Source of the DNA: Candidatus Latescibacterota bacterium
Lineage (GTDB): Bacteria > Latescibacterota > UBA2968
Assembly (NCBI GenBank): GCA_965116885.1
Contig: OZ220741.1
Span: forward strand, 3,360,001-3,424,000
Length of the DNA stretch: 64,000 bases
Reading direction: 5' to 3'
This document shows positions 36,502 to 59,426 of this stretch, piece after piece (positions within the stretch are counted from its first letter, which is position 1; each line of letters opens with the position of its first letter). Made by a program: the position numbers and the translations under genes. The notes under the pieces were generated by a model, which saw only the letters and a list, made by a program, of their open reading frames with translations, was not told where the DNA came from and made no database searches.

Positions 36502-37017
36502 TCAAGCCATACTCAGGCTGTATCGAATTTCTCTGCGTTCAACTCCTGCAAGGGGTTCTGATTTTTGTGCGCCATCCGCACTGAATCCGAATTTTTGATA
36601 GAAGGAAATCGCTCTCTGGTTGGTTTCGAGAAGCCAAATTTTCACCGTTGAGCAATTCATATTGCGAAGGGCCGTAAGAGATGCCTCCATCAGCTTTCGA
36701 CCAATGCCGCGGTCCCAGAATTCTTCAAGGGCGTAGATTGCATAGACTTCGCCAACGGCGTTTTTATCCAGTCCTTCATCTCGTACGGGGCCAAAGCTGA
36801 TGAATGCAACGATCCTTTGCTCTACTTCAGCTACAAGTACTTTGTTGGAGGGGCTGTTGAGGGTCAGGTGCCATTGTTTCTCCCTCTGGTCAACAGACAA
36901 ATTATCGAGGATGTCATCGGGCAATTGCCCCTTGTACGCAGCCTGCCATGACCGAACGTGGACCTCGGCCAAGCCCCTGGCGTCGTTTTTGGAAGGTTCT
37001 CGGATGATTATTGTCAT
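36502..37017 (-). CDS. GNAT N-acetyltransferase
   Basis: HVRSWQAAY, GEVYAIY, RGIGRKL, NQRAISFYQKFGF. Confidence 0.92.
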   Translation of the reverse strand: MTIIIREPSKNDARGLAEVHVRSWQAAYKGQLPDDILDNLSVDQREKQWHLTLNSPSNKVLVAEVEQRIVAFISFGPVRDEGLDKNAVGEVYAIYALEEFWDRGIGRKLMEASLTALRNMNCSTVKIWLLETNQRAISFYQKFGFSADGAQKSEPLAGVERREIRYSLSMA

Positions 37018-37055
37018 GGTGGGCGGCCTTTCAAAGTGATGGTGCCTTTCCTCAT
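37014..37055 (-). other. 13-aa junction mini-ORF MRKGTITLKGRPP
   Basis: ATGA overlap with upstream stop and ATGA overlap with downstream start. Confidence 0.5.
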
Positions 37056-37993
37056 TTCTTGAGCGCGTCTCTTACGGCTCTGGCGAGTCCCGGGTGCTTC
37101 TGCAGGGTGCTCAAGCGAGAGATGACGAGATTGCCGCCGCCGTGTTTCAGGGCGATTTCTATCTCTTTGGCAAGGCGTTCGGGTGTGCGTACGAAGCCAG
37201 GCAAGTCGTGAATGCCGATGAAGGAGACAAAGCGGTTGATCTCTGGATTTTCCAGGCGCTTCATTTCGGCGGCTTCCATTTCAACGCGTTCGAGTCGCCA
37301 TTCGGGGGGATAGAACCAGGAGATGGTCTGTGTGCAATAGTCGAGTTTGTATTTGGCGCCAATGTACTCGTCGGGAAGGAAGTGCGGCCAGACGTGGTTG
37401 GTGACGATGGCATTGGGATCTATGGATTTAGCGTGGTTGTAGAGGAGGCGGTGAACGTCAATGAGCGTTTGCGTGGAGACTTTGCCCATGATTTCGATAT
37501 CGGACAGGTCGGGGGTTTGCTCGCGCGCTTCTTTACGCAGGGTTTCACAGAGGTCACAGAAACAGGCGTAGTGGTTGACAAAGCCAAAGCCGTCGAGGGC
37601 GATCCCGTCGGCGATAGCCAGGGCGAGTTCAGCCCGCTTCTTGAGTTCGGCCTGCGATTCGGGATGCTCGAAACAGAGGACTGTTCTCGGTAAGATAAAC
37701 GATTGCCAGCGGTAGCTCTCTCCATGCGGGTGTCCGGCAATGGCGTCCAAGACTTTGTATTCGAATTCGCGCATTTTCTGAAGACAATGCGGATAGGTAT
37801 TTTCAAAGTCGTCGTCGGAATAGGGGAAGACGGTGGCGATGATCTGAATGTCCCGTTTATGTGCTTGCGCGACCATTTCAGGCGTGGCGCTATTGGTAAT
37901 AAGCATGTTGCAGCCAAGGTCAGCCACAAAATCGACGGCTTGTTCGCGTTTGGTGTCGGTTCTAAGACGATCGATGGCCCAAACGGCTTTCAT
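37052..37993 (-). CDS. Hypothetical protein, possible glycoside-hydrolase-like TIM barrel
   Basis: AAAGGA RBS before ATG 37993; LCFEHP, DGIALD, CFCDLC. Confidence 0.6.
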   Translation of the reverse strand: MKAVWAIDRLRTDTKREQAVDFVADLGCNMLITNSATPEMVAQAHKRDIQIIATVFPYSDDDFENTYPHCLQKMREFEYKVLDAIAGHPHGESYRWQSFILPRTVLCFEHPESQAELKKRAELALAIADGIALDGFGFVNHYACFCDLCETLRKEAREQTPDLSDIEIMGKVSTQTLIDVHRLLYNHAKSIDPNAIVTNHVWPHFLPDEYIGAKYKLDYCTQTISWFYPPEWRLERVEMEAAEMKRLENPEINRFVSFIGIHDLPGFVRTPERLAKEIEIALKHGGGNLVISRLSTLQKHPGLARAVRDALKK

Positions 37994-38041
37994 AGGGAGA
38001 TGTCCTTTCTGAAGTTGGGCAACGGTTATCATCTGGTTCTG

Positions 38042-38497
38042 TCAGGTAATATCTCCCAGGTATATGGGAGGTGCTCCGGGTTCAGAGCCAAGATAATCGA
38101 GTAAGGGCTTAGGATAGAATCTCAGGTTCTTGAGTTCACTAATGCTCATCCATTTCACCCCAACCTGGATTGAATCTCCCTCTGGGGCTTCGGAGGCATT
38201 ATAGTCTTCATCAACGGAACATCGGAAGATGAAGTCAATTAAATGGACACCCTTCGTCCGGGAACCCTCGTGATTGTCAGTGATATATTCTCGAACAAAG
38301 TTTAAACCTTCAACTGTGACGTCAGCCCCTATTTCTTCTTGACATTCCCGCTTGAGCGCATCTATAAGTGTCTCTTTGCCGGGGTCCATGCCACCCCCTG
38401 GCAGAATGTACCAAAGACCTTTGTCATCGATATTCTCGGTAACGAGAATTTGGTCGCCTCTCTGAATCAGAGCCTTGGCTGCATTTCGCAAGTTCAT
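38042..38497 (-). CDS. NUDIX hydrolase
   Basis: LPGGGMDPGKETLIDALKRECQEEIG Nudix box. Confidence 0.92.
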   Translation of the reverse strand: MNLRNAAKALIQRGDQILVTENIDDKGLWYILPGGGMDPGKETLIDALKRECQEEIGADVTVEGLNFVREYITDNHEGSRTKGVHLIDFIFRCSVDEDYNASEAPEGDSIQVGVKWMSISELKNLRFYPKPLLDYLGSEPGAPPIYLGDIT

Positions 38498-38507
38498 AAT
38501 AGATACC

Positions 38508-38531
38508 TCAAGCGAATCTCACGCTACTCAT
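38508..38531 (-). other. 7-aa junction mini-ORF MSSVRFA
   Basis: ATGA overlap with PhoD stop; its TGA overlaps the GAGGT RBS of the NUDIX gene. Confidence 0.45.
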
Positions 38532-39871
38532 CTCAGATCATTTTCTCCCAACACGTATTTGATCTGTACGTTCCCGTCTTTATCGACAATTTTCATGTTT
38601 AGCTCGCGGTTTCCTTTAGGGCCTGAGAAACGGAGTAGCCCAAAGTTGAAACCGGGATAGACGGTTGCGATACTCTGTGGGTTTCCGCGCCAGCCCGAGC
38701 GGGGTCTTTGAACGATTGGGTCTGTCCTGACAGCGGCGTTGGAACTGAGCAATTCAAAGAGGGGATAGGTGTCCTGTCCCTCGCGATAGAGGCGGTTGAG
38801 CGTTCCGACGTGCCAATCGCCTGCGATGAAGACGACACCGGTGATGTTTTCGGCGAACATCCATTTCAGGAAGTCGTCTCGCTCTGTACTGAAGTTGTCC
38901 CATCGCTCGCCGCGTCCGGTGAAGTCAACGACCATGCTATTTCCATTGGCGATCACTTTGAACGTCGCTGTGCTCGCCTTCAAGGACGCTTTCAGCCAGT
39001 CGATCTGGCCCTGGCCGAACATTGTCTTGCGGTCTTCTGCTTCATTCGGGTCCCTATGATAGCGATCGTCGAGCATGAAGAACTCGACATCGGAAATTCG
39101 AAACTTGTGAAAGATCCCCTTTGTCTGGGAAGTGCCCCCGCCCGAATTAGGCCAATACCGTCGATACAGTTCCAGGGTCTCTTCCCGGTAGGAGAATGTG
39201 CGATCGGAGTTGTTAGGCCCATAGTCGTGGTCGTCCCAGATCCCATAGCTGGGCGTCGTCGCCATTAGTGCTCTGATTTCCGGCACATGTCGTACTTCCC
39301 GATGATATCCCGCCATTGCATAGCGGACTGGATCCGGGTCCTCGCCGTAGTGACTGGATCGTCCCGGCATGTAGTTGATGTCGCCAATAAAGAGAAATGC
39401 GTTTGGACGGTGCTGCAAAACTTCTGCAAATGCGGGTTGCATGGGCTGTGTAGCCGGATTCAGGCAGGAACCAAATCCTACGGAGAAATCAGCGACATAG
39501 GTTGAGTCATTTCGCCTCGGTTGCATCGCGGGCATTGTGCGGAATACCTGGGGAACAAGTGCTCTTACCTGTTTCCCATTTACCGAAATCGCGTAGTGAA
39601 CCCTCGTGTTCTGCACAAGTCCGTTCAGTGTCACCGTGCCGGTGTGGGGATAGCTCTCAGAGGTCATCGTTTCTACTGCTGAACGGGTGATCTCCATTGC
39701 CCTGCCCGTTTGTGTCCAGTAATCCACTGTGACCTTCGCTGGCGCGTCTGTCTCAACCCAGATTATCGCCGATGATGTCGTCGTATGGCTTATCATTGGG
39801 CCTGCAAGTAGCTCTGCGGCCATTATCCGCGTTGGAATAAGCATCAGTACTGTCAGGATCAAAATTCTCAT
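38528..39871 (-). CDS. phoD: Alkaline phosphatase D family protein
   Basis: FGSC, IGDINY, IWDDHDYGPN, MLDDRYHR, AGDWH. Confidence 0.88.
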   Translation of the reverse strand: MRILILTVLMLIPTRIMAAELLAGPMISHTTTSSAIIWVETDAPAKVTVDYWTQTGRAMEITRSAVETMTSESYPHTGTVTLNGLVQNTRVHYAISVNGKQVRALVPQVFRTMPAMQPRRNDSTYVADFSVGFGSCLNPATQPMQPAFAEVLQHRPNAFLFIGDINYMPGRSSHYGEDPDPVRYAMAGYHREVRHVPEIRALMATTPSYGIWDDHDYGPNNSDRTFSYREETLELYRRYWPNSGGGTSQTKGIFHKFRISDVEFFMLDDRYHRDPNEAEDRKTMFGQGQIDWLKASLKASTATFKVIANGNSMVVDFTGRGERWDNFSTERDDFLKWMFAENITGVVFIAGDWHVGTLNRLYREGQDTYPLFELLSSNAAVRTDPIVQRPRSGWRGNPQSIATVYPGFNFGLLRFSGPKGNRELNMKIVDKDGNVQIKYVLGENDLR

Positions 39872-40368
39872 TTCTCCTCCTCTTGTGTAAAGGCTTTGGA
39901 AAGTATTGTTTTTGCCAGTTCTTCGGATCGCTGAGAGCCAATCAATAATCGCTTTCCATTGGTTAATTCCAATTGTACGCCTCGATCTCCACTCACATTA
40001 TAAGCCATTCCTTTAGCTCCATATCGAATTCCCCATCCGCCGTATTCTTTGATTGGGCTGTATTGTCTGGCATCACATTTTGCAATTTCTGAGAATGGAA
40101 TTATCTCTTTCTTCAGCGGAAAGAATCGGATGTGAATGGCGTCATTTTTGACATCCGTTACCATCTTTATCGAAAGCATAAACACCGGTACTAATACCAG
40201 AGCCAGAATACTGACACCATAAATAAGCGTATTGGTGCCAGACATTGGCCAGTTCCGAAATACCGTGAATCCTATATAGATCAAAGCTGAGATGCAAGGT
40301 ACAAGTACAATAGCCAATAGCCAGCCCTGTCTAAATTGCTGAATTTCGCTGAAATTTGAGTTGTCCAT
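39868..40368 (-). CDS. Membrane protein, DUF6141-like
   Basis: FSEIQQFRQ, two TM helices, YGGWGIR, LLIGSQ. Confidence 0.75.
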   Translation of the reverse strand: MDNSNFSEIQQFRQGWLLAIVLVPCISALIYIGFTVFRNWPMSGTNTLIYGVSILALVLVPVFMLSIKMVTDVKNDAIHIRFFPLKKEIIPFSEIAKCDARQYSPIKEYGGWGIRYGAKGMAYNVSGDRGVQLELTNGKRLLIGSQRSEELAKTILSKAFTQEEEK

Positions 40369-41358
40369 TTATGACTCCCAGGGTATGGGTACATCGATCT
40401 CTGTGGCAATGTGCTGCAACATGTCGAGATGTTCTTCGGTCAACGGGATACCGCTTTGTTCGCGTTCTTGTTCGCGTTGCCATTCCAAACTGCCGGGGAC
40501 TTCGGCGCTCGACAAGCCCGGCATGGGGTTCAGCGACCGGCTTTCGCGCAAGATGCGAGAGATTTCTGCCTTATAAGCCTCCAGATCGCCCAGTTGAGCC
40601 ACATCAATCGCCACAATCATAAATCCTCGCGTGGCACTTGAATATTTTGGTTTGTGCGATTCGGGTGTCGCTGTGCCCGATAGAATGCCCGCCAGGAACC
40701 ACGATGTAAATCGCATGCCCAAACTTTTAAAAATAAAATCTGGAAATGTCTGCAATGCCTCGGCGAGTTTGCTGCGGTCTTTCAACATGTTTGCGTTCAT
40801 GTCCAGTACAAAAGGCGGGCCTTCTGCCGTTGGTATGCCAAAACACATCGGGGGAGCAGACATCGCATCCCATACCGTTGCATCGGGGCGCGTCGGTTTG
40901 ACCCAGGCGATTCCCCCTGCCACGCAAAAGGTCGCCAGATCGCGCGTTAGTGCCAGCCGCGCGTAGATCCCCGCGCTGCCCACATGGCCGTGATTGCGCG
41001 TGCTCGCAACGGCAATGCCATTTGTTTTCGCCTTTTCAATGACGGCCTCTGTTGCCCGCGTTGCCACGAGGTAACCCGCACCGCCATCCCCGTCAAAAAT
41101 CGCCATTGAAGGGGCATCCGTAATCTGAACAATTTGGGGCTGTGGGTTAATGCGCCCTTCTCGAAACTCAGCCACATACCGCCGTAACTGTCGCGTGCCG
41201 TGTGTAGCCACGCCGCGCAAATCTACATCTACCAGATAGCGCGCGATCAACGCGGCGTCGCCATTGGGCAAATGGACTTTGCGCAATGCTGCGGTAGCAA
41301 AGTTGCGTAACAGGTCAGGCATTATACGCCTGGCGTCTTCGGGGATATAAACGGGCAT
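40369..41358 (-). CDS. Ldh_2 (malate/L-lactate/ureidoglycolate dehydrogenase-like) oxidoreductase
   Basis: DLRGVATHG, FDGDGGAG, RNHGHVG, VLDM, VPG. Confidence 0.88.
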   Translation of the reverse strand: MPVYIPEDARRIMPDLLRNFATAALRKVHLPNGDAALIARYLVDVDLRGVATHGTRQLRRYVAEFREGRINPQPQIVQITDAPSMAIFDGDGGAGYLVATRATEAVIEKAKTNGIAVASTRNHGHVGSAGIYARLALTRDLATFCVAGGIAWVKPTRPDATVWDAMSAPPMCFGIPTAEGPPFVLDMNANMLKDRSKLAEALQTFPDFIFKSLGMRFTSWFLAGILSGTATPESHKPKYSSATRGFMIVAIDVAQLGDLEAYKAEISRILRESRSLNPMPGLSSAEVPGSLEWQREQEREQSGIPLTEEHLDMLQHIATEIDVPIPWES

Positions 41359-41380
41359 GAGAGTCTCCTGCGAGGTGGAA

Positions 41381-42604
41381 TTACTGTTCTGTCCAACTGG
41401 CGATGAAGTCCGCCGTGCCGTAGTCCGCGGGCATTTCGTTGAAATAGTGCTTCATAGGGATGGACTGAAAGCCCGGTACAAAGTGCTCTTCGTCCGATTG
41501 AAGCAGTGCTTCGAGTGGGCTGAAGCGATCCCAGAGCAAGCGAGCTTCGTCAGAGGTGAATCGTTCGGCGAATTTCGATCCCCAGTTGAGCGTGATGGGA
41601 TGTTTTCCCAGAAGGCGACGCTGGAGGTCTTCGGCGATGCCCTGAAGCGGGGGATCTTTGTGCAGTCGAATCGCAAGTGCCGCCTTGCAGAGAAATACGG
41701 TTGACAGGATTCTGCCTTTTTCGGCTCGCCACGGGTGGAGGTTGTCCAGGGCGCTGAGATACGCGCTGCCATCTGCAGAGAGAACGGCTCTCAGGGCGTC
41801 TTCCGTATGCTGCTTCATCTGTTCGCTGTGGTCGCTCCAGCGCGCGAATGCCTCCTGTGCCTGCGGAGAGATGTGGTCGGCAAACGAGAGGTCGTCAATT
41901 GACGTGTGGGTCGAGAAGCCACCGTGGATGGTTCGCCGCATTTTAGGGCTGTAGTTGCTGCCCCAGTGGAGGATGGGGAGGATATAGACGACGCCGTCAC
42001 CGGCTTCGAGGTGGGTCTGTACGCCATTGGGTAGTGGGCGGCAGGGGTCTGCCAACAATAGTTCGTTCTCTTCGGGGGTGTTCAGTCGCAGATGGCTGCC
42101 GGGTATCACCCAGAGGACGCTGTCATCGTAGAGCGGGATGTTCCACTGGACGTAACGCGGGCCTCCTTCGAGGATGTCGTCGATATAGCCCTGAAGCGGT
42201 GCCGTGTCGATCGGATGGTGATCGCGGTGCCACTTTGCCGGTCCGTGATCTCTGACGGGGTTGCACATCATCATCATTTCCGTGACGGCTCCGTCCGTTA
42301 CATCGAGAAGCTCTGTGCTGACTCCGTGGATGTTTTCCTCAAGCCATACTTCGACCACTGGCGCGGTCTCCTGGTCAATCTGATTGACGAGCGGCGACCT
42401 CGAGAGTTGCAGGCGAGGCTGCGGCGCTGTTTCCCATACGCCACCAGGTGGATCATTGTCCGCACGCTCGGTCTTCCAGTTTTCGCGCTGGCGGTCAACG
42501 AGCGTTTCGTACGCCTGCCGCACGCGTTCGAGTTTGTCGCGTGGCACGGCTTCCTTAACGATAAGGTAGCCGGTTTCCAGAAATTCGTCGCGGTTGAGTT
42601 TCAT
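41381..42604 (-). CDS. PhyH family dioxygenase with C-terminal extension
   Basis: GGAG RBS before ATG 42604; WHRD, WVIPGSH, GDGVVY..ILHWG. Confidence 0.85.
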   Translation of the reverse strand: MKLNRDEFLETGYLIVKEAVPRDKLERVRQAYETLVDRQRENWKTERADNDPPGGVWETAPQPRLQLSRSPLVNQIDQETAPVVEVWLEENIHGVSTELLDVTDGAVTEMMMMCNPVRDHGPAKWHRDHHPIDTAPLQGYIDDILEGGPRYVQWNIPLYDDSVLWVIPGSHLRLNTPEENELLLADPCRPLPNGVQTHLEAGDGVVYILPILHWGSNYSPKMRRTIHGGFSTHTSIDDLSFADHISPQAQEAFARWSDHSEQMKQHTEDALRAVLSADGSAYLSALDNLHPWRAEKGRILSTVFLCKAALAIRLHKDPPLQGIAEDLQRRLLGKHPITLNWGSKFAERFTSDEARLLWDRFSPLEALLQSDEEHFVPGFQSIPMKHYFNEMPADYGTADFIASWTEQ

Positions 42605-42768
42605 GGATGACTCCAATTGGGGTAAAGGTGTGCTTGTGTAACATGGACCTATTACACGTTGGCACAGTGGGATAGGGATAGCAATAGTGGGGAATCCCTT
42701 GACTTTCAAGAGGTCTTTGTTGTACTTTCGATTATCCCAAATAGAGTACTCTATCAAGGAGGAACGAG

Positions 42769-43002
42769 ATGTCTGCGCCATCTCTTCTTAATGAATTAGA
42801 AGAAAACATCCGTCGTTTGCCTTTAGATGATCAATTGTTGCTTATTGAGCGAGTAAGCCATCGGATACGAAATGATATTTCTGTTAAAATGGATATAGAC
42901 GCTCAATTGAGTAAAATGGCCGCTGATCCTGAAATCCAAAAAGAACTTCAGGAGATTGAGCAGGAGTTCTCTGCCACAGAGCAAGACGGGCTGGATGATT
43001 AA
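42769..43002 (+). CDS. Putative antitoxin
   Basis: 77-aa acidic ORF, AGGAGG RBS, TAATG coupling to PemK/MazF toxin. Confidence 0.7.
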   Translation: MSAPSLLNELEENIRRLPLDDQLLLIERVSHRIRNDISVKMDIDAQLSKMAADPEIQKELQEIEQEFSATEQDGLDD

Positions 43003-43349
43003 TGGCTATTGAGCGTGGCGAAATATACTTTGTGAACCTCAACCCGGTGAAAGGGCGCGAGCAAGCAGGTCAACGTCCAGTATTGGTTCTGTCCACAGAT
43101 GCAATTAATCGCTTGCCTCTCGTCGTAACTGTTGTTGTAGGTACCAGTGGTGCTAATATCACCCGGGATTATCCTACAAATATTCGACTGCAGCCAGCAG
43201 AAACAGGTTTAGATTCGGAAACAGTTTTTCTCGGGTTTCAGATTCGATCATTGGATTCAAAACGCTTTCCAGATCGTGCAACAGGCCGAGTTTCAAGAAC
43301 AACTTTAAAAAAGGTAGAGGCGGTTGTTCGATATTGCCTTGGTCTGTAG
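43002..43349 (+). CDS. mazF: PemK/MazF family toxin
   Basis: RGEIYFVNLNPVKGREQAGQRPVLVLS, QIRSLD. Confidence 0.92.
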   Translation: MAIERGEIYFVNLNPVKGREQAGQRPVLVLSTDAINRLPLVVTVVVGTSGANITRDYPTNIRLQPAETGLDSETVFLGFQIRSLDSKRFPDRATGRVSRTTLKKVEAVVRYCLGL

Positions 43350-43380
43350 GTGCGTCTGGTTTTCTCTAAATATAGAAAAT

Positions 43381-43848
43381 CTATCCGGTCTGAATAAGCA
43401 CAAAATCTTCATCATCGCCCGGTGGCTCAAAGCGATTGATGAATTCTGTGAATGCCTGGTCGTTGATCCAAAGTGAATCCTGGTCGTTTTTTGAACGAGT
43501 GAGGGTCCGGTCCCGCAGTACGTCAATGGGAGCGTCGAGGAAATAGAGTTTTGAGTCTGCGCCTATAGCCGCCGCCGCTTGCCTAACATTTTCACGATCC
43601 CTTTTGTACCAGAATCCCCTATCGAGTATGACGTCTGTGCCGAGGGCGAGATTACGCGTGGCAATGCGCCAGATCAGGTTGGAAACGCGGTTGAAAAGTA
43701 CTTCAAATTGATCGGGCGATCTGCCGTAGAGTTGAACCATCCACTCGTCATAAGTGTATCGTATGGCCCCGTGAGTCTCTTCAAGTTCCCGAGCAAAAGT
43801 GGTCTTGCCTGAACCCGGTCGGCCACAGAGTAAGTGAACAGTTGCCAT
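43381..43848 (-). CDS. AAA_33 P-loop kinase-like protein
   Basis: LLCGRPGSGKTT, DEWM, VILDRGFW, RFEPP. Confidence 0.85.
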   Translation of the reverse strand: MATVHLLCGRPGSGKTTFARELEETHGAIRYTYDEWMVQLYGRSPDQFEVLFNRVSNLIWRIATRNLALGTDVILDRGFWYKRDRENVRQAAAAIGADSKLYFLDAPIDVLRDRTLTRSKNDQDSLWINDQAFTEFINRFEPPGDDEDFVLIQTG

Positions 43849-43870
43849 TGTATCTGATGATACCTCTTTT

Positions 43871-44686: not shown

Positions 44687-44700
44687 GTCAGAGAATTGCT

Positions 44701-44724
44701 CTATGTGTCTGTGGCACTTTTCAT
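44701..44724 (-). other. 7-aa junction mini-ORF MKSATDT
   Basis: TAATG overlap with msrP stop; ends 14 nt before the next ATG. Confidence 0.4.
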
Positions 44725-45800: not shown

Positions 45801-45826
45801 ATCAACCTCCTCAATCAGGTCCCGGC

Positions 45827-49343: not shown

Positions 49344-49642
49344 TTACACGTCATGTATAATCCATACATTGGGTTCTTCGTGATAGCCAATGTTGTTTTC
49401 TCGGTCAATTGATACGAGTGCCAACGCCCCTGGAACGACGTATTTACCCGATGTTGGAAAGGACATGTCCGTCCATTTCTCCCAATCATTGACTGTACCT
49501 CGGACAGACATTGATTTCGGTGCCGCCCGTGCAATCCGACCTCCAATCTTCCAATGTACTCGGGCCAGTTCGTTCGGGAATCCCATGTCTGCTCTCGCAG
49601 ATCGGGTCGCTCGATATGCGAATACACAGTCAACTTTTTCAC
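49344..49642 (-). pseudogene. Internally deleted, frameshifted transferase (GNAT-like) gene
   Basis: N-terminal ERPDL...WPEY in one frame joined to C-terminal RVHWKIGG...GTVNDWEKWTDMSFPTSGKYVVPGAL...EPNVW in another. Confidence 0.7.
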
Positions 49643-49668
49643 AGTATTTCGTAATTCCTTCCGAGCAT
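49639..49668 (-). other. 9-aa junction mini-ORF MLGRNYEIL
   Basis: TAATG overlap with upstream stop and GTGA overlap with downstream start. Confidence 0.5.
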
Positions 49669-51183: not shown

Positions 51184-51211
51184 TTCGATTATTATCACCA
51201 AATACTGCAAG

Positions 51212-52387
51212 TCAAGGTTCTACCTTAAGGGCGGCGATCACAGTATCCAACTTTTGTCCAACGCGGGGACTGCCCCCTGTTTGGTTATAGACCACAACGC
51301 CAGTCGCATCGATAATGATGTGACGAGGATATACTCTCCCAAGAATTTCTCTCAATCTATCAGAACAAAGCGTGATCTGATAGTCGAATTTATGATTCTT
51401 AAAAAACTCTTTTAATTCGGTAGGCGTATTGTCTGCAATTGCCAGAAAGATTACCCTATTAGAAGCATACTTCTCAACCAAATCATTGAGGCCTGGCATC
51501 TCCTCAATGCAAGGCGAACACCGAATATGCCACCAATTGAGTACTACAATATTTCCTCGGAGATTGCCGAGATTGAGGATATTTCCATCAAGAGTTTCGA
51601 TACTTAAATCTGGCACAGGGAAACCAGTATTGATATTCAAAATTGTCTTCGTTGGAGCCAGTTCCAATTTGTGTCCATCTGAAGATATTTTGGCGATTTC
51701 ATATGCTGTTGAGCCCAATGGAAAAGGCTGATTGATGGCGTAGGATTCAGTTCTCCGAAATATGCCAAGCGAATCTACTGAGCCTTCTGCTTGGAAATGT
51801 CCATCTCCATCCTGGTCAATCAATATTAGGCCTCTGCTTGTTTTCTGGAAGGAAAACTTGTTCTCAGGTGTAAGCGCGATTTTAACTTTTTTTCCGCCAA
51901 CAGTGATAGCACCAAGCCGAAAATCAAGTCGTCGATACATCAGCATTTTTTGGATCGGATAGTACCGGAAGGCGAGCAGGATCTTCGGCACCAACCCTTC
52001 ATCTCTGGGAATTTTGAGTGTTCCAGTATAGTACTCGTGTCCTCTGGATTGATGCAGCTCAAATGAAATCTCGGATGCTGTCTTAGCCTGATTATCGACC
52101 ATATAGAACGATAATTTTTCTGCATTTGCTTTGCCCCAAACCAGCATTAATGAATCGGTCTCGCTAAGTTCGATATTAGCTTTCATTGGATCGGTAAGTT
52201 CGGGTATGTAAGGTATCTCTTCGACAAGCTCCCTTACACCTATACCGCTATATGAATAAGTTGACGATAATAAAGCACTACAGGTGTCCATCCTGGCGAA
52301 AGCAAGCTCTGCGGTTATCGTTCTTCCTTGAACCTGGACAGTAGCGAATACAATTAAAAATATATTTAGGACTGTATGTGGACGCAT
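51212..52387 (-). CDS. Secreted TlpA-type thioredoxin-like disulfide reductase with N-terminal extension
   Basis: Signal peptide; VVLNWWHIRCSPCIEEMP, YPRHIIID. Confidence 0.85.
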   Translation of the reverse strand: MRPHTVLNIFLIVFATVQVQGRTITAELAFARMDTCSALLSSTYSYSGIGVRELVEEIPYIPELTDPMKANIELSETDSLMLVWGKANAEKLSFYMVDNQAKTASEISFELHQSRGHEYYTGTLKIPRDEGLVPKILLAFRYYPIQKMLMYRRLDFRLGAITVGGKKVKIALTPENKFSFQKTSRGLILIDQDGDGHFQAEGSVDSLGIFRRTESYAINQPFPLGSTAYEIAKISSDGHKLELAPTKTILNINTGFPVPDLSIETLDGNILNLGNLRGNIVVLNWWHIRCSPCIEEMPGLNDLVEKYASNRVIFLAIADNTPTELKEFFKNHKFDYQITLCSDRLREILGRVYPRHIIIDATGVVVYNQTGGSPRVGQKLDTVIAALKVEP

Positions 52388-52425
52388 TGAGATTTCTCCT
52401 TATCTGGAGTTCCTCAAATAATAAC

Positions 52426-53790
52426 TCAGCGTTTGTGTGTAGCAATCTCGTACATTTCGTTTGTGCAGGTCTTGAGGACTTTCAGGAGTTCGGGATACGG
52501 TTCGCCGTAGCCGGTGAGCAATCCAGAATGCTGGCGGTCCTGTTTTTGGGCGACCAGGTTGGAGGCATCGATCAGGCCGCAATAGTGCCAACCAATAAAT
52601 TCTGGACGCGCAAAGGCGTTTTGAAAGAACTCAGCGGTCCATTCGGCTCGCTGTTCAATGTTGTCGGCTACGGGACCGTAGGGGCGCGGCATGGTGTCTG
52701 TGATCATCGTGAAAGCAGAATCGCCATTGATCAGCGGTTTGTCGGCAGTCCTGTACCAGCGATCTAACCCGGGTTTTTGCACTTCGTATCGGGCATACAT
52801 TTGATAGAATACAATGTCGGTAAATTGGCTTGTAATGGGCAATAGGGTATCCAGCGCATCTGTGTTGGCATTGATTTTGTCGCCGACGAACAGATGGTTT
52901 GGATCGTACCGGCGGATCGCATCCCGCGTTGTCTGGTAGTATTTTGCGACGACTTTTTGGAGGAATTCAATATTGTCGCGGGTTTCGTTTCCATTGGAAA
53001 GATCGGTGTGTGGTCGCCAGTTCTCGGCTGTTTGGAGCGCGTCAAACGAATCAAATTGCGTGCCATAAGTTGCGTTGAAGTCGCTAATTTGCTCGCGATA
53101 GATATCGCGCATGGTCCGAACATAAGCCTTTTTGCCCGGTGCATCGGCACCCAAATTGCGCAATCGTCGCGGCCAGCCGATTCGCGCTTCCCGTCGTGCG
53201 CCGCCAATTACGTCGGGGCGTTCCCTGCAATCTTCTTCTGTAAATAACGGGCAGTCGGTCATGGCATAACCGAGCAGGAAGGGATCATCTTTTGCAGGTG
53301 CGGCAAACTCCTTTGCCATCTGATCGCAGTGTGAGGCAAATGCGTCTGAAAAGACATCCAAAAAATTGCTGTCGGGTATTTCTTGCTGCCAATGCGGGAT
53401 ATCGACAAAGTGAATCGACTGCATATAGGGCATAGATGGCTGCGGACGATTGACGGCTGACAACTCTGTGTGTACGCCTACTGTATTGAAGCCGTATTGA
53501 CGACATGTTTGCAGGAACCAGGTTTTGAGGGCAGGTGTGAATTCGCGGCTGTACAGATTGTCTATGCCCAAGCGTTTCTGCCAGGCTTCGCGATTGTAGT
53601 CCTGTTTCCACAGATGGGGATGCAGGTGGTTTATTCCGAAGCTCAGAAACGCATTCCCCTCGGGGGTTACAAGCCACCATCTTTCGTCTTTTTCTACGCG
53701 GAAAAAACCAGTTGCCTCAAATTTTTTGCCTGTCCAGCCGCCGTATTGATCGCGTTCGGCGGTGTTCTGGTGCGGTTTGTGTTTTTGCAT
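52426..53790 (-). CDS. Glycoside hydrolase, agarase-like
   Basis: GFFRVEKDERWWLVTPEG...GINH, GFNTVG, DDPFLLGY, IRRYDPNHL. Confidence 0.7.
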   Translation of the reverse strand: MQKHKPHQNTAERDQYGGWTGKKFEATGFFRVEKDERWWLVTPEGNAFLSFGINHLHPHLWKQDYNREAWQKRLGIDNLYSREFTPALKTWFLQTCRQYGFNTVGVHTELSAVNRPQPSMPYMQSIHFVDIPHWQQEIPDSNFLDVFSDAFASHCDQMAKEFAAPAKDDPFLLGYAMTDCPLFTEEDCRERPDVIGGARREARIGWPRRLRNLGADAPGKKAYVRTMRDIYREQISDFNATYGTQFDSFDALQTAENWRPHTDLSNGNETRDNIEFLQKVVAKYYQTTRDAIRRYDPNHLFVGDKINANTDALDTLLPITSQFTDIVFYQMYARYEVQKPGLDRWYRTADKPLINGDSAFTMITDTMPRPYGPVADNIEQRAEWTAEFFQNAFARPEFIGWHYCGLIDASNLVAQKQDRQHSGLLTGYGEPYPELLKVLKTCTNEMYEIATHKR

Positions 53791-53821
53791 TTGGGTACCT
53801 CTGAATAGTTATCAGAGTATT

Positions 53822-54673
53822 TTACTCAGCGGGAATAACTTCTCGCGTGACTTCCTGAACTTTACCGGGGTGGGTTCGTCCTCTTACCCACATAATGGGC
53901 TGGCCCTTGCCGGCGTTTTCCGGATTCATCCATTCTGCTTGCGCGCTTAAGTAGTGCGATACATAACTGCGCCTGAATCGCTGGCTGTGGTTATTGGTGC
54001 TTTTGTGCAGGAGGTGAGAGTGGAACCAGATGACGGCACCGGGGGGGACTTCTACGGGAATGCCGTCCTCATCGCGGGCATTGCGTGCGAGTTTAAATTC
54101 GTTTTGCTGTGATCCCTCAATGTCGTCGTGTTCAGAGATTGCCTGTTTGTGACTGCCGGGGATTACGTAGAGGCAGCCGTTGTCGCGATCGGCGGGGTCG
54201 ATTGCCGTCCATGTGCCGACGGTTGTCGCTGTTCTGAACCGCCTGCCAAAGTAAAATTTGTCCTGGTGCCAGGGGAATCCCAATCCGATTTCGGGTGCTT
54301 TCCAGATGAAGAGGTTGTTGATGCCCAGAATGTCTGGGCCGAGAATATCAGCAACCGGGTCTGTCAGGCGTGGGTCGCGCACGCGGACGAGGAATTCCGG
54401 GATGTAGCAACTGGGGTGGTGGATTTTGTGCATGGCGTAGATACCCGATTGTTTGTGTTTGCCGTCCCGGACAAGGGCATTGCGGTCGATGTGAGCCATT
54501 GGCATTTTTCGCTTTCCTGCGACAATGTCTTCGGCGACCTGTCGCAGGTCGTCGTTTTCTTCCTGTGAAAAGACGTTTTCCCGCACAAAATAGCCATTGC
54601 GTTTCCAGTGCTGAATTTCATAGGGTGTCATGCGATTGGCATTTATTTTTAATGGTGTTGCTGGGTTTCCCAT
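53822..54673 (-). CDS. PhyH family dioxygenase
   Basis: PWHQD, WTAID..NGCLYVIPGSH, LLHKS, RRS. Confidence 0.92.
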   Translation of the reverse strand: MGNPATPLKINANRMTPYEIQHWKRNGYFVRENVFSQEENDDLRQVAEDIVAGKRKMPMAHIDRNALVRDGKHKQSGIYAMHKIHHPSCYIPEFLVRVRDPRLTDPVADILGPDILGINNLFIWKAPEIGLGFPWHQDKFYFGRRFRTATTVGTWTAIDPADRDNGCLYVIPGSHKQAISEHDDIEGSQQNEFKLARNARDEDGIPVEVPPGAVIWFHSHLLHKSTNNHSQRFRRSYVSHYLSAQAEWMNPENAGKGQPIMWVRGRTHPGKVQEVTREVIPAE

Positions 54674-54724
54674 ATATAATCTCCTGAGTGTTTTTGGGTT
54701 GGGAGGTTGAAAGCCCCTTGTCCT

Positions 54725-55039
54725 TTATACCTTAAGTCCTATGTCATGTGGTTCAATCGTCTCTAATTCTTGAGCTTCAGATTGGATCGTTTGATACAGA
54801 TCCCAGCGAAGTTGGAGATTCATCCAAAACGCGGGTGACACATCGAAATATTTTGCCAGACGCAGGGCTATGCTCGGCGTCATACCGCGGTGACCATTCA
54901 CCAATTCGTTGACCCGCTGATAAGGAACATGAATGGCGTCAGCCAATTCGCGTTGCGTTAAACTCAAAGGATTTAGAAACTCCTCCAGCAGCATCTCACC
55001 TGGATGAGTTGGAACACGATTTGTTGGAATACGTACCAT
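54725..55039 (-). CDS. higA: HigA-type (addiction module antidote) antitoxin
   Basis: PTHPGEMLLEEFL, QRVNELVNGHR, FWMNLQ. Confidence 0.93.
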   Translation of the reverse strand: MVRIPTNRVPTHPGEMLLEEFLNPLSLTQRELADAIHVPYQRVNELVNGHRGMTPSIALRLAKYFDVSPAFWMNLQLRWDLYQTIQSEAQELETIEPHDIGLKV

Positions 55040-55062
55040 AATCGATACCTTTCATTCAGTGA

Positions 55063-55356
55063 TTAGTGATAGTCAATGATCTCGACATCCCAGGGGCCAG
55101 CATCCGACCACACAAAGCAAATCCGATATTGATCATTGATCCGAATACTGTGTTGTCCAGAACGCCTGCCTCGCAAGACCTCGAGATGGTTGCCCGGTGG
55201 ACTGCGTAGGTCGCGCAGTTCATCGGCTGAGTCCAGTTGTTCGAGCTTTCGTGCGGCTACAGTCCACAATGACGATGGACAAGTACCGCGTGCGGCACGT
55301 GTGTCCCGTCCATTGAAAATATCTTCAGTGCCAGTACGCCGGAATGATTGAATCAT
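55063..55356 (-). CDS. higB: HigB-like (RelE/ParE plasmid-killer type) toxin
   Basis: MIQSF, DLRSPPGNHLE, SIRINDQYRICFVW, VEIIDYH. Confidence 0.93.
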   Translation of the reverse strand: MIQSFRRTGTEDIFNGRDTRAARGTCPSSLWTVAARKLEQLDSADELRDLRSPPGNHLEVLRGRRSGQHSIRINDQYRICFVWSDAGPWDVEIIDYH

Positions 55357-55362
55357 GATCGC

Positions 55363-55391
55363 ATCATAACACGGACTCCATGCTATGTCAA
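55363..55391 (-). promoter_or_regulatory. Near-consensus sigma70 promoter with operator; leaderless toxin mRNA likely
   Basis: TTGACA-17 bp-TATGAT, 6 nt before ATG; imperfect inverted repeat ATAGCATGGA-G-TCCGTGTTAT. Confidence 0.8.
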
Positions 55392-55396
55392 ATATG

Positions 55397-55759
55397 TCAG
55401 GTGGTGGAAGCCTCACGCGCGCCGATCCAGACCTGATTGCCATCGGGATCGCGAACTCTAAATTCTGTCATGCCGTAAAAGGTTACGCGGGTAGGATCGG
55501 GTTCGAAACCAGCGGCTATCACGCGGTCTCTTAACGTTTCAATATCGGATGTATAGTAGTAAACAACGGTTGAGGCATTCGATTCCGTGCGAATCGAACG
55601 GTCTATCATCACCTGGCAACCGCGTTCACCTTCCAGCAGGGCGTGCCCCCACTCGTCTTTGCGCTGGATGATCTTGAGACCCAGGCCTTGCGAGTAGAAG
55701 GTTATGGCTCGATCCAAATCGGTTATTGGAACCATTGCGGTGATGCGATGTATGCTCAC
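55397..55759 (-). CDS. VOC/glyoxalase family protein
   Basis: ITDLDRAITFY, TFYGMTEFRVRDPDGN. Confidence 0.9.
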   Translation of the reverse strand: MSIHRITAMVPITDLDRAITFYSQGLGLKIIQRKDEWGHALLEGERGCQVMIDRSIRTESNASTVVYYYTSDIETLRDRVIAAGFEPDPTRVTFYGMTEFRVRDPDGNQVWIGAREASTT

Positions 55760-55984
55760 TGTTTTGTCTCCCTAATGATCAATCGAAAGTCGAGAACTGC
55801 CTTGTAGTACTTTGTTATCGAACCTTGGTATTTACGATAGCTGAAATTCCTTTAGACTCGACTTGGTCCATTTTAAGAGGTATATTTGAAAGTTGCGGAT
55901 GGGGAAAAGCAAAGCGTGTATTCTCTAATATCTGAAAAAAATAAATATTATGCAATTATCTGTAGGGAGATTGCGTTTTAGCAC

Positions 55985-56836
55985 ATGGAGCAGGAGATGG
56001 CAAATGCAGGTGTGAGGTCGAAACGGGAGATTTTGCTCGATACCGGATATTTTGTAGAAAAGGGCGTCCTGAGCGATTCGGATATTGCGATTTGTAAGGA
56101 TCGATTGCGAGAGATTGCGCTCTGTATTGATTTTTATCGCGATAAGATTCGGGCAATTATAGATGTGCAGGATGAGGCATACCAGAACCATCCCGATCCT
56201 CTGTTGCGATTTGATTGGATCAATGAGATTTCGTTTCGAGATCGGGTATTGTGGCAATATTCTGCTGCACATCCCAGGCTTATTGCATTGGCTATGCAAG
56301 TGTTAGGCCCCGATATTTATCCACTTAATGGCGGCGGGTTCTTTATGAAACCTCCCCGTTGTGGCGGTGAGGTACCGTGGCACCAGGATGCGAGTCCTTT
56401 CGATGGTTCAGAGGATATACCCGTGCCTGTGCTTTTCGATTTCTGGCTGGGGCTGGATGCGGCAGATGTTGAAAATGGGTGTATGGAATTGATTCCTGGA
56501 TCGCATACTCTGGGGCGTTTGGAGCACGAGCAGACGGGTAAGATTTTGAGGGAGATGGATCCCTTTAAGCAGGGATTTACCGAGGACGATGTGGTGCGTA
56601 TTGAGACTGATCCCGGCGATGTGATTGTGTGGCATCAAGATTTGATCCACCGATCTTCAGCTAATTTATCAGATCGTCCGCGGATTGGCAAAGCGAGTGT
56701 TTATATGTCCCAAGCCGATGAAGAGACGATACGGCAAATGTCCGATCCCTGGGGAGTGAATCCAAATCGACCACCGATCTGTTTGGACGGTAAAATCTGT
56801 GAACTGACGCATTTTATTGAAGCACCGGGTCTGTAA
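55985..56836 (+). CDS. PhyH family dioxygenase
   Basis: PWHQD, WLGLD..NGCMELIPGSH, GDVIVWH..LIHRS. Confidence 0.92.
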   Translation: MEQEMANAGVRSKREILLDTGYFVEKGVLSDSDIAICKDRLREIALCIDFYRDKIRAIIDVQDEAYQNHPDPLLRFDWINEISFRDRVLWQYSAAHPRLIALAMQVLGPDIYPLNGGGFFMKPPRCGGEVPWHQDASPFDGSEDIPVPVLFDFWLGLDAADVENGCMELIPGSHTLGRLEHEQTGKILREMDPFKQGFTEDDVVRIETDPGDVIVWHQDLIHRSSANLSDRPRIGKASVYMSQADEETIRQMSDPWGVNPNRPPICLDGKICELTHFIEAPGL

Positions 56837-57275
56837 ATGCTGGGAATTTTTTCATCTGAACATGTGTGGAATTTTCATCAACGATTGAAAATCCCAGTCT
56901 CTGGTAGAAGGCGATGCCGCGGATGTTGATCTTTAATACTTGCAGTTTCACAGCCTTCCCCGTAGCGTCGGCATCAGCGATAATGCTTGTCATACATGCT
57001 GATCCAATCCCTCTACCATGATACTCAGGATGGATGAAGAACTGATAAATCTTGAGAGAATCGGAAGTACAGGATGTGGAGAAGAATCCTACATCGTTTC
57101 CCTGAAATTGGATAATCCGAAAATCCTGCGAATCAAACCGCTTATTGTGTAATCCCCTCTGATGTGTATCGTCCCACCCCTCGACCTGCGCTACATATTC
57201 TCGGAATGCGGCCTTTTTTACGGCAAAGACAAAGTCGCTGTCAACTACATCTGCCTTACGGATTGTAATAGTCAT
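56814..57275 (-). CDS. GNAT N-acetyltransferase
   Basis: IHPEYHGRGIGS, LQVLKIN, FYQRLGF; 23-nt convergent overlap with PhyH gene. Confidence 0.9.
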   Translation of the reverse strand: MTITIRKADVVDSDFVFAVKKAAFREYVAQVEGWDDTHQRGLHNKRFDSQDFRIIQFQGNDVGFFSTSCTSDSLKIYQFFIHPEYHGRGIGSACMTSIIADADATGKAVKLQVLKINIRGIAFYQRLGFSIVDENSTHVQMKKFPAFTDPVLQ

Positions 57276-57309
57276 TTTGCATTCGGCCCATTACTGGCAA
57301 TTTCTCCAT

Positions 57310-57444
57310 CTAACCGAACCGCTCCTCTAACCATGCAACGGCGAAATCGGTCAGCATCAAGGTATCGCCCGAGACAATCCCCAGTTTTGATAAGTCAGAT
57401 ACCAGCTTGCTTCGCGTAATTACTGGCAAATCTATTTTCGCCAT
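57310..57444 (-). pseudogene. In-frame internally deleted aminoglycoside 3-N-acetyltransferase (AAC(3)-like) remnant, 44 aa
   Basis: AAGGAG RBS; MAKIDLPVITRSKLVSDLSKLGIVSGDTLML-TDFAVAWLEERFG* resembles the AAC(3) N- and C-termini joined. Confidence 0.65.
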
Positions 57445-57481
57445 TGCGATCTCCTTTTTAGATCAGGTTTATCATAATCCT

Positions 57482-58753
57482 CTATTTATCTAAACCAGGT
57501 ACAACTGCGCCATGTGACAAAAGCAATTCGCGCAGATCGGAAATAGGGACTTCGCGAGGTGTGGTTTCCAGACGCACAGATAATGCAGCGGCAGCACCTA
57601 CAGCTTGTCCCATGGCCATAGATGAAGCCTGTACTCGCAAAGCGGAATTCGCCAACCGATCACTGCTCACGCTGCGACCAGCGACCAGCAAATTGCGACT
57701 CTCTTTGGGGATAAGCGCGCGAAGAGGGACGGTGGGAACGATTCCTTTGGATAGCGGTCTGGGTTTGATGCCATCGCGGTCGTGGAGATCGATGGGGTAA
57801 AAAGAATAGGATACGGCGTCATCAAAAAGCCGTCCGCTCGTGTAATCTTCATGGGTTATTTGCACATCGCCAACAATGCGATAGGTCTCACGCACGGCTG
57901 TTTCTGCCTGAGCTTTCAAAACACATGCGTTTTCGCACCCTGGTAGAGAACGCACAAAACGCAGAATCCGCAATAGCGCCTGTCGCCCTGCTATGTTGGT
58001 TTTTGTATGCCTGTCAGAGGTTGATGCATCAGCACCAAATACATGCTGGGCATTTCCGCCTTTTCGAAGATAACTGATAAATCGCACCTGTGGATTCATT
58101 ACATCGCCGTGCTGCAAACGGCCATCTTTAATGGCAGCAGAAAAATGCGCCTGAATGACCTCCTCATCCAGTGATTCGACATTATAACCCCCGAGTTCAA
58201 AAATCAACGTGCCGGGTTGGGTTTCTTGTTCGCGCAAACGCGGAAAACCGATCTGCCCGACAATATTTGCGCCACCAGTACAATCAATTAACTGTTTGGC
58301 CCATATAGTGCGGCGCATGTTTTTGCCTGTGGTTTCTACTGTCCAACCCGTGTCCGTTTCTGAAACCCGAGCCGGTATTTCGTAGAAATGTAATTTCACC
58401 CCTGCTTGCGTACAGGCTTCTTCGACGAGTGCGGCATATACTGGACCGTTGATGCGAATTTGGTGCATCCAATGGCGCTCGGGAGGTACTGAAAAATCTG
58501 GCAATTTTCTACTGTCAAGTGCCACAGCTTTTGTAACGAGTTCCCATCCGATACCCGCAATAATCTGTTTTCCCCAGGCGTGAAAAAGGCCCGGAAACGA
58601 GACCCCACCCGTTGTGGTTACACCACCGAGTTGGCTGCCGGATTCAATCAGGGCTGTGCGAAGTCCCGTGCGCCCAGCTTGTACCGCAGCAATGGTGCCC
58701 GCTGTACCACCGCCAATGACCAGAACATCTACATTTTCTTTCATGTGCTCCAT
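57482..58753 (-). CDS. FAD-dependent oxidoreductase
   Basis: DVLVIGGGTAG, LGG..T.GGV, IDCTG, RETYRI, NLLVAGR, LRVQ...MAMGQA. Confidence 0.9.
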   Translation of the reverse strand: MEHMKENVDVLVIGGGTAGTIAAVQAGRTGLRTALIESGSQLGGVTTTGGVSFPGLFHAWGKQIIAGIGWELVTKAVALDSRKLPDFSVPPERHWMHQIRINGPVYAALVEEACTQAGVKLHFYEIPARVSETDTGWTVETTGKNMRRTIWAKQLIDCTGGANIVGQIGFPRLREQETQPGTLIFELGGYNVESLDEEVIQAHFSAAIKDGRLQHGDVMNPQVRFISYLRKGGNAQHVFGADASTSDRHTKTNIAGRQALLRILRFVRSLPGCENACVLKAQAETAVRETYRIVGDVQITHEDYTSGRLFDDAVSYSFYPIDLHDRDGIKPRPLSKGIVPTVPLRALIPKESRNLLVAGRSVSSDRLANSALRVQASSMAMGQAVGAAAALSVRLETTPREVPISDLRELLLSHGAVVPGLDK

Positions 58754-58773
58754 ATTGACAATCTCCCTGTACT

Positions 58774-59373
58774 TTACTCCTCAGTTTCAGTGTCGCCAAG
58801 GGGATGAAGATCAATCGGTGTGAGAATTCCGTAAAATCCGTATTTGATGCCTGACCGATCTCCTTTTCCAGGCGGAAAGTATTCTTCTATAAGTGCCAAT
58901 AATCGGCGACTAAATTCGGATGCCTGTTCTTCAGATAGCCGCGCGCGGTTGTGATTGACTGATGTCTGGAATGTCGAACCGTACAAGCCCTCGGCGACTT
59001 CGCGAAATGCTTGATTGAACTGGCTGACAACATTGATTGGCATGGCCTCTGCAATCTGGTTGTTTGCCAAGAGGTCCTGTCGAACGCGAATCTTGCCCGC
59101 TGCTGGGGAACAACGCCATTCATGGGGACCAGTTTCATCTGTCTCCAATTGTACGACACCTGTTTCTGCCAGCTTTTTCAAGTGGTATAGCATCCGGGCA
59201 TCAGTAATTTCCAATGTCTGCGAAATTTCTGCAACCGACTTTCCTTCTCCAAGGGTTTCGAGGATGAGCCAACGAAGTGGATCGGCAAGTATGTTCGCTC
59301 GGTCATCCTCGATAACGATTACTGTCTTCTTTAAAGTGTTGGTCGGGAATGTCAGTTCGCGCCATGTACTCAT
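58774..59373 (-). CDS. Winged-helix (ArsR-like) transcriptional regulator
   Basis: LADPLRWLIL...SVAEISQTL...LYHLKKLAETGVV. Confidence 0.85.
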   Translation of the reverse strand: MSTWRELTFPTNTLKKTVIVIEDDRANILADPLRWLILETLGEGKSVAEISQTLEITDARMLYHLKKLAETGVVQLETDETGPHEWRCSPAAGKIRVRQDLLANNQIAEAMPINVVSQFNQAFREVAEGLYGSTFQTSVNHNRARLSEEQASEFSRRLLALIEEYFPPGKGDRSGIKYGFYGILTPIDLHPLGDTETEE

Positions 59374-59426
59374 TCAGACTCTCCAGTCGTATAATTAAGG
59401 GATCTCTCTTTTCTCCGATTTCTCAT
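59370..59426 (-). other. 18-aa junction mini-ORF MRNRRKERSLNYTTGESE
   Basis: Starts 3 nt after upstream TGA; ATGA overlap with downstream start. Confidence 0.5.

Follow-up and report, generated by a model that had tools for sequence, protein, structure and literature searches.

Arrays of short accessory genes of unrelated function that all run in one direction are known from integrons, both as sedentary chromosomal integrons and as clusters of attC sites without an integrase, and their cassettes commonly encode GNAT acetyltransferases, glyoxalases, methyltransferases, and toxin-antitoxin pairs. Flexible genomic islands, in the partial accounts available, are a second kind of variable chromosomal region, and pseudogenes formed by deletion between short repeats, as well as hybrids of tandem paralogues, are familiar products of gene decay. 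At the level of translation, neighbouring genes can be coupled through 4-nucleotide (nt) ATGA or 1-nt overlaps of stop and start codons. The coupled pairs in the accessible parts of published work are real genes (PMC12548453; PMC10666635), and coupling by termination-reinitiation, according to the accessible part of one of these studies, drops steeply with distance and is nearly abolished at about 20 nt (PMC10666635). Here we consider a minus-strand gene array in a 64,000-nt stretch of DNA from a Candidatus Latescibacterota bacterium (lineage UBA2968; assembly GCA_965116885.1, contig OZ220741.1, positions 3,360,001 to 3,424,000 of the forward strand), which is called the window below, and seven very short open reading frames (mini-ORFs A to G) in the spacers of that array. 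An initial annotation had read these ORFs as scars of removed or replaced genes, the first codons of one gene fused to the last codons of another, that were kept when translation stayed unbroken.

The array and the mini-ORFs, including an eighth that was absent from the list in the initial annotation, have the following positions:

28400..63998, minus strand: the array, recognized by its Pfam families, its spacer lengths, and its mosaic among 13 relatives
37014..37055, minus strand: mini-ORF A, 13 amino acids (aa), ATGA at both ends
38508..38531, minus strand: mini-ORF B, 7 aa, ATGA start; stop within TGAGG, 10 nt before the next ATG
44701..44724, minus strand: mini-ORF C, 7 aa, TAATG start
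49315..49341, minus strand: mini-ORF D, 8 aa, ATGA end
49639..49668, minus strand: mini-ORF E, 9 aa, TAATG start and GTGA end
57458..57475, minus strand: mini-ORF F, 5 aa
59370..59426, minus strand: mini-ORF G, 18 aa, ATGA end
33290..33343, minus strand: eighth mini-ORF, 17 aa, ATGA start; its TAA stop immediately adjoins the next ATG

The seven ORFs were directly observed as the initial annotation gave them, all starting with ATG on the gene strand and with the same lengths and overlaps, and a comparison among them likewise found no shared sequence. The most probable explanation, to which we assign a probability of roughly 75%, is that they are incidental frames in short, fast-evolving spacers of a hypervariable array that changes by deletion, paralogue recombination, and reordering. 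A mini-ORF would start where the end of the upstream gene, by coincidence, reads NNA-TGA or TAA-TG; other starts would come from a stray ATG. It would end at the next gene where that gene starts with ATGA or GTGA, as more than half of the downstream genes do, so that a TGA stands in the +1 frame; the other ends would be stops in the A/T-rich stretch ahead of the ribosome-binding site. The array itself changes through gene-scale deletions at short homologies, recombination of neighbouring paralogues, and reordering, a turnover that does leave pieces of lost genes, both heads and tails, at junctions. On this view the mini-ORFs would be free of any selected role, and translation of most genes downstream would begin at their own ribosome-binding sites.

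The array holds about 40 co-directional ORFs, 0-80 nt apart, which represent accessory genes of unrelated function. Their Pfam content includes several GNAT acetyltransferases, methyltransferases, PhyH dioxygenases, and glyoxalases, two HigB/HigA pairs, and NUDIX, HIT, HAD, PhoD-like, beta-lactamase-fold, and ANT(2'')-like proteins. Relatives were collected in one scan with the 497-aa protein encoded at 46762-48255, which returned 79 loci. Thirteen of these (L001-L011, L016, and L024) belong to Candidatus Latescibacterota, each locus being about 21 kb long and several coming from complete chromosomes; they have 94-96% protein identity to the window in the scan and about 90% nucleotide identity in shared genes. 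The other 66 loci are distant, have unrelated neighbourhoods, and are uninformative on junctions. Direct comparison across the 14 genomes revealed that the array is a mosaic in which single genes are gained or lost and gene order is changed, with breakpoints in or beside spacers. For example, the window has the order methyltransferase, phosphoesterase, gene x28, and HIT, whereas L007 has HIT, phosphoesterase, x28, and methyltransferase. Families that occur in the relatives only include GNATs, toxin-antitoxin pairs, NUDIX, PhyH, and nucleotidyltransferases (all by Pfam). The breakpoints have no core sequence in common, and among the matches listed there are only scattered short homologies.

In its single direction and its short, unrelated accessory genes the array is like an integron cassette array, and the likeness extends to the GNATs, glyoxalases, methyltransferases, and toxin-antitoxin pairs and to the gain, loss, and reordering of single genes between related genomes. 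In an integron, each cassette is followed by an attC site, an imperfectly inverted repeat whose cores are RYYYAAC and GTTRRRY, and the tyrosine recombinase IntI, attI, and a promoter stand at the array's head. Unlike integrons, the array has spacers of 0-80 nt, which at the typical length of attC sites leave no room for attC. An integron or attC array was tried as a candidate and rejected, as each strand has 1 pair of cores at a distance of 40-135 nt compared to 3.3 ± 2.0 in shuffles. No family of inverted or direct repeats was found at the junctions, and no attC was seen after the 497-aa gene in the 79 loci. No recombinase or integrase was detected by Pfam among 64 window proteins and 56 representatives of the families restricted to the relatives, the head of the array lying beyond the window end at 64000 and beyond all loci. 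The proposal that the array was built without recombinase sites is consistent with this absence of attC and integrase from the window and the 13 loci, within which the upstream end of the array is out of reach. Flexible genomic islands are alike in that the array occupies a chromosomal site in all relatives, differs in content between close species, and carries insertion sequence (IS) elements in some of them; relative to the partial accounts of such islands, the array differs by its single-gene grain within a tightly packed, co-directional arrangement. The literature, part of which was available as excerpts, yielded no description of such arrays in Latescibacteria or of bridging mini-ORFs, which is weak evidence that none is in print.

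The seven mini-ORFs are weakly conserved. Of 29 comparisons of the same gene adjacency in relatives, 9 retain the contained ORF and 5 an identical peptide; these 29 omit L024 at junction G, where the end of the upstream gene has a 6-nt deletion and the missing ATG was read by eye. The ATGs of E and G occur in the window only. The same comparisons bear on the idea that the mini-ORFs are functional micropeptides or leader peptides regulating the downstream genes, for which the sole favorable point is that they are ATG-initiated and adjoin genes. Start, frame, and peptide are all poorly kept, the peptides are 5-18 aa long without a shared sequence, no Rfam family matched in 28000-64000, and no terminator-like structure was found in the spacers on the gene strand. 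A function as peptides is therefore extremely improbable.

A scar origin was assessed by aligning each spacer to a pool of 754 heads and tails, taken from all ORFs of at least 80 aa in the window array and the 13 loci with flanking families omitted, and by comparing the best score with those of shuffled spacers. None of mini-ORFs A-G, nor the eighth, scored above the null against the 754 heads and tails. The best of the seven was C, with a score of 26 compared to a null of 21.9 ± 2.0 (maximum 29), which matched the head of a 122-aa gene family. Both positive controls were detected, with scores of 37 (null maximum 30) and 89 (null maximum 29). Moreover, the full genes that a scar would lead back to, and that the initial annotation proposed to seek at the seven positions, are present there in none of the 13 relatives. 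With 0 of 7 matching the pool, no relative carrying a gene at these sites, and the ORF kept in 9 of 29 comparisons, a scar origin of the seven is not supported.

The number of such ORFs was compared with that in shuffled spacers, for which gene starts were curated and each spacer was shuffled with its flanks fixed. The window set consists of 33 co-directional junctions with 892 nt of spacer in total. Nine of the 33 junctions contain an ATG-initiated ORF of at least 3 aa compared to 7.2 ± 1.8 in the shuffles (P 0.24), and the spacers contain 18 ATG triplets where 21 are expected. At 168 junctions of the relatives, the observed and shuffled counts are 38 vs 41.7, 12 vs 10.3, and 24 vs 18.1 (P 0.05), and at the 55 adjacency types that do not occur in the window they are 16 vs 16.0, 5 vs 2.8 (P 0.13), and 8 vs 6.5. 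Any excess of junction ORFs is thus weak at most, partly post hoc, and non-significant in independent junctions.

The contexts of starts and stops fit the composition of the genes once true overlaps are set aside. Nineteen of 39 stops are TGA, 8 of which follow an A, and 4 of those 8 are at true overlapping gene starts. With the true ATGA overlaps excluded, A precedes 4 of 15 TGA stops, and third codon positions are 23% A. An A stands at position +4 in 21 of 39 starts, so a TGA in the +1 frame closes ORFs that arrive in that frame. True ATGA gene overlaps occur in the array at 61630-61633, 39868-39871, and 33002-33005, and another is present at 46762-46765 of the window. The mini-ORFs reuse the same stop/start overlaps but differ from the published coupled pairs in being non-conserved, putative frames: A, D, E, and G end on a TGA that overlaps the next start, a feature of coupled pairs, and A, B, C, and E start on or beside the upstream stop. 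By motif score, 5 of the 7 genes that follow a mini-ORF have a Shine-Dalgarno match 4-12 nt ahead of their start, and the match of the GNAT at 37017 (AAGG) is weak. At junctions A and C the ribosome-binding site is weak or absent.

The individual junctions were compared with those of the relatives. The ATG of B is formed by the last codon (AGA) and the TGA stop of the PhoD-like gene; of 8 relatives, 7 have the ATG, 4 have a contained ORF, and 2 have the identical peptide. The TAATG of C is shared by 5 of 13 relatives, and the rest have TAAAG, TAACG, TAAGG, or TAAAA. The ATG of D lies 2 nt past the natural stop of x28 (49344-49346), within the frameshifted ORF of the upstream pseudogene, and is present in 2 of the 4 relatives that have the x28 end. 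Mini-ORF E lies across the boundary between the 3' end of the phosphoesterase gene and the 5' leader of x28, and its ATG is found in 0 of 3 relatives. Mini-ORF F is an ordinary spacer between an FAD oxidoreductase gene and an AAC(3)-family gene and is identical in L006, whereas in L016 and L010, both with a 7-nt insertion, it continues out of frame. The first part of G is window-specific, and from about 59411 on the ORF consists of the conserved 5' leader of an HTH gene; its ATG is absent from L005 and L024, both of which have the same adjacency. The eighth mini-ORF overlaps a promoter-like site before HigB, and in L002 the same ATG is in frame into HigB.

Junction A also differs between the window and its relatives. 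The ATG of this mini-ORF lies in the end of the upstream gene (AAG AAA TGA), and the window-specific ORF was derived from a spacer 7-10 nt shorter together with a change from ATGG to ATGA. This ATG opens a frame that runs into the GNAT gene in 4 of 6 relatives: L006, L008, and L024, where the frame crosses a 41-44 nt spacer holding TTAAGGAG, and L016, where the spacer is deleted and the ATG is the GNAT start itself. The shorter, frame-shifting spacer is common to the window and L007. The contained ORF is kept in 0 of the 6 relatives.

Several points weigh against the mini-ORFs being incidental frames. The scar test would overlook any remnant below about 15 nt, as well as any whose parent gene is missing from the 14 genomes. 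The spacer of C (44695-44722) resembles a gene head in another frame, matching 19 of 23 nt of the head of the 122-aa gene at 36120-36488 (site 36466-36493, from the GTG start), and it may be an old head remnant common to all 14 genomes. No origin was identified among the sequences of the 14 genomes for the window-specific first part of G. ORFs that are tight at both ends number 7 compared to 2.6-3.1 in shuffles (P 0.002-0.004), by a statistic that was set only after the seven mini-ORFs had been seen and that gives P 0.03-0.10 when GTG and TTG starts are allowed. The count that the initial annotation had proposed, of spacer ORFs with an overlap at one end or more, is also above the shuffles (8 vs 4.1, P 0.01), and less so when the 14 nt that precede every start are left unshuffled (8 vs 5.7, P 0.03); an excess over chance is not established. 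The gene starts of the relatives are automated calls, and the 55 window-absent adjacency types have the same lean as the window (5 vs 2.8, P 0.13). Finally, most of the relatives' ribosome-binding site (TTAAGGAG) is lost at junction A, and the mini-ORF has an ATGA overlap with both neighbours, so it could serve as a ribosome relay.

Such a relay, in which some mini-ORFs and above all A pass ribosomes on by termination-reinitiation, first from the upstream stop to the mini-ORF's overlapping ATG and then from its TGA to the overlapping start of the following gene, would give these ORFs a role in expression without making them gene remnants. The ATGA at both ends of A and the loss of TTAAGGAG, which L006, L008, and L024 retain, are in keeping with it, and initiation at this ATG is plausible since it shares the GNAT frame in 4 of 6 relatives and serves as the GNAT start in L016. 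A relay would also help over spacers of 25-56 nt if coupling by reinitiation is nearly abolished at about 20 nt, as in the accessible part of the study cited above (PMC10666635). However, the layout of the relay is not conserved (none of 6 relatives retains the contained ORF at A, and across all junctions 9 of 29 comparisons do), most downstream genes have a ribosome-binding site of their own, and the relatives have no excess of such ORFs. We regard a relay as unlikely and favor incidental frames at these junctions as well.

Gene turnover has nevertheless left traces elsewhere in the array. Sequence comparison identified five verified deletion remnants in the window, all at coordinates other than those of the seven mini-ORFs:

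57310..57444, minus strand: AAC(3) scar, a 44-aa ORF with the first 31 and the last 13 codons in an in-frame join
56814..57275, minus strand: chimeric GNAT gene, in which the leader and about the first 8 codons of paralogue x22 continue in frame as the body of the next GNAT
49331..49642, minus strand: x28 pseudogene, put out of frame by an internal deletion that is bounded by two copies of CCGAGT
48799..48844, minus strand: NUDIX tail scar without a start codon, comprising the stop and the 14-15 codons before it; score 89 vs a null maximum of 29
46727..46760, minus strand: metallophosphoesterase head scar, a Shine-Dalgarno sequence, a start codon, and 5 codons; head score 37 vs a shuffle maximum of 24

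The parent of the AAC(3) scar is a 273-aa gene of the aminoglycoside 3-N-acetyltransferase family (PF02522, E 3e-62 on the full-length L002 copy). A complete AAC(3)-family ORF is present in L002, L003, L006, and L024, and L016 has the full-length 5' sequence. The chimeric GNAT gene carries a 5' leader at 57276-57309 that is derived from x22, a neighbouring paralogue, and the crossover in the GNAT of L005, 9 nt further in, is an independent one. In the x28 pseudogene, the joint lies at about 49553-49558 and the product has 28 native residues followed by 75 frameshifted ones; x28 is intact, at 244 aa, in L004, L007, L008, and L010. The NUDIX tail scar is from x48 of L006 and L007 and lies directly after the HIT stop. 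The metallophosphoesterase head scar lies directly after the stop of the 497-aa gene (the native head is at 50496-50525), and a weaker possible tail of the metallophosphoesterase gene follows at 46699-46725 (P 0.02). Within the 83 nt after the 497-aa gene (window 46679-46765), the head scar is in frame with the next gene from the ATGA start at 46765. Among the relatives the frame varies across this stretch, and an internal ATG about 85 nt past the upstream stop is conserved. The ATGA start at 46765 of the 312-aa gene is doubtful given that the relatives differ in frame there, and it is probably not the native start of that gene. Annotations of this region should accordingly be read with caution at 49331-49642, at the head of 56814-57275, and in the first 29 codons of 45827-46765, all of which are chimeras or frameshifted remnants. 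Both the x28 deletion, joined at CCGAGT, and the GNAT chimera, joined within homologous heads, are of the kinds known from short-repeat deletion and from hybrids of tandem paralogues, and nothing is unusual about such remnants here except their number in one array.

Further remnants were observed in the relatives. L005 has a 17-aa ORF that consists of Met and the last 16 codons of a methyltransferase gene as well as a 17-aa head of an AAC(3)-family gene with an ATGA end on the next start, and L010 has a 14-aa ORF with a methyltransferase head and an ATGA end on HIT. Start-less remnants include a phosphoesterase tail in L004 and a NUDIX tail in L009, and in L010 the start codon was removed by an AAC(3) deletion. 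In addition, L006 (19585-19612) and L009 (17709-17795) have an ATG TAA, a start followed by a stop, a few nt before the next gene. A 6-aa ORF precedes a HigA-like gene in L011 (18968-19010) and L001 and is possibly the leftover of a toxin partner.

These remnants bear on both parts of the initial reading, in which each mini-ORF joins the head of one lost gene to the tail of a second and is kept for unbroken translation. The process itself occurs in the window, as in the AAC(3) scar (57310-57444), with its 31 and 13 codons in frame, and the chimeric GNAT (56814-57275), and scar ORFs of the proposed type are present in the relatives (the two 17-aa ORFs of L005 and the 14-aa ORF of L010, 2 of 3 with an ATGA end on the next start); tight ORFs are also nominally in excess in the window. 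None of these true scars, however, is among the seven mini-ORFs listed, no gene stands at any of the seven sites in the relatives, 0 of 7 match a head or tail among the 754, the ATGs of A and B are the upstream gene's own last codons, and those of E and G are limited to the window. Nor does the comparison support selection for unbroken translation: start-less remnants persist in the window (48799-48844) and in L004, L009, and L010, as does the out-of-frame x28 remnant, so continuity of translation is not required for survival. Given what Rho needs for loading, the spacer lengths of 12-56 nt also make Rho polarity an unlikely force. The initial reading is thus partly supported, in that genes removed or replaced in this array do leave head and tail scars (five in the window and more in the relatives), whereas the seven mini-ORFs are ordinary, most of them being accounted for by the stop and start codons of the genes on either side; that each of the seven arose and was kept in the proposed way is improbable.

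A narrower form of the idea would keep the cassette-like array without attC or integrase, its single genes being lost, replaced, and reordered at stop/start boundaries through recombination at short homologies and between paralogues. Remnants that retain a start and end at the next start, such as in-frame head-tail fusions and heads with an ATGA end, would preferentially survive by keeping ribosomes on the long transcript, and a minority of the mini-ORFs, such as A, G, and the spacer that holds C, would be selected relays or scars. We hold this version to be an outside chance, and incidental frames remain the preferred explanation for the seven.

At spacer G, the window segment 59374-59411, which is the first part of the spacer, replaces a segment common to L005, L024, and L003, and the window has GAGA where the relatives have TCTC, adjoining a short palindrome. 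This swap hints at template switching in a quasi-palindrome. The 326-aa gene (window 38000-38041) has two alternative heads among the relatives, one after a 9-nt spacer (window, L024, and L007) and the other with a 1-nt overlap with the NUDIX stop, TGATG (L005, L008, and L016), which indicates that gene heads themselves are swapped.

Other features of the array include the following:

55985-56836, plus strand: PhyH insert in the array (Pfam)
42769-43349, plus strand: MazEF insert in the array (Pfam)
55363..55391, minus strand: promoter-like site before HigB (TTGACA, 17 nt, TG, TATGAT; 11 of 12 matches) within a 40-nt spacer
L004 15070-16194, L005 (x32, minus strand), L007 19771-20343, and L010 19510-20490: DDE transposase genes (IS elements) in the array of the relatives (Pfam)

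The second HigB gene has a promoter-like site at 33299-33328 in the spacer just upstream, and both HigB toxin-antitoxin pairs may therefore have their own promoters inside the array; overall, promoter- and terminator-like sites in the array are not commoner than in shuffles. The IS element of L007 sits within the NUDIX 3' region. The 497-aa protein is without a Pfam family and has 61-80% identity across many phyla (L012-L079), including Chloroflexota, Planctomycetota, Gemmatimonadota, and Verrucomicrobiota, and its unrelated neighbourhoods suggest frequent horizontal transfer. The remaining window is ordinary chromosome, with genes for DnaK, sulfatases, heparinase, and a TonB-dependent receptor, and no tRNA genes were found in the window. 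Outside the array, at 4042-8050, a 922-aa AAA_21/SMC-like ATPase and, after it, a Schlafen AlbA_2/HATPase_c_4 protein together look like a defence module.

Had the initial reading been true, the mini-ORFs would have pointed to a new, translation-policed route to cassette arrays. The analysis shows instead that the seven are what short A/T-rich spacers between TGA or TAA stops and ATGA starts yield anyway. The remaining interest lies in an array that varies gene by gene among 14 Latescibacterota genomes without integron sites and that holds several datable remnants, including in-frame head-tail fusions. As such, the array is a good natural system for the study of how gene loss shapes operon junctions and of whether frame or coupling biases which deletions survive.

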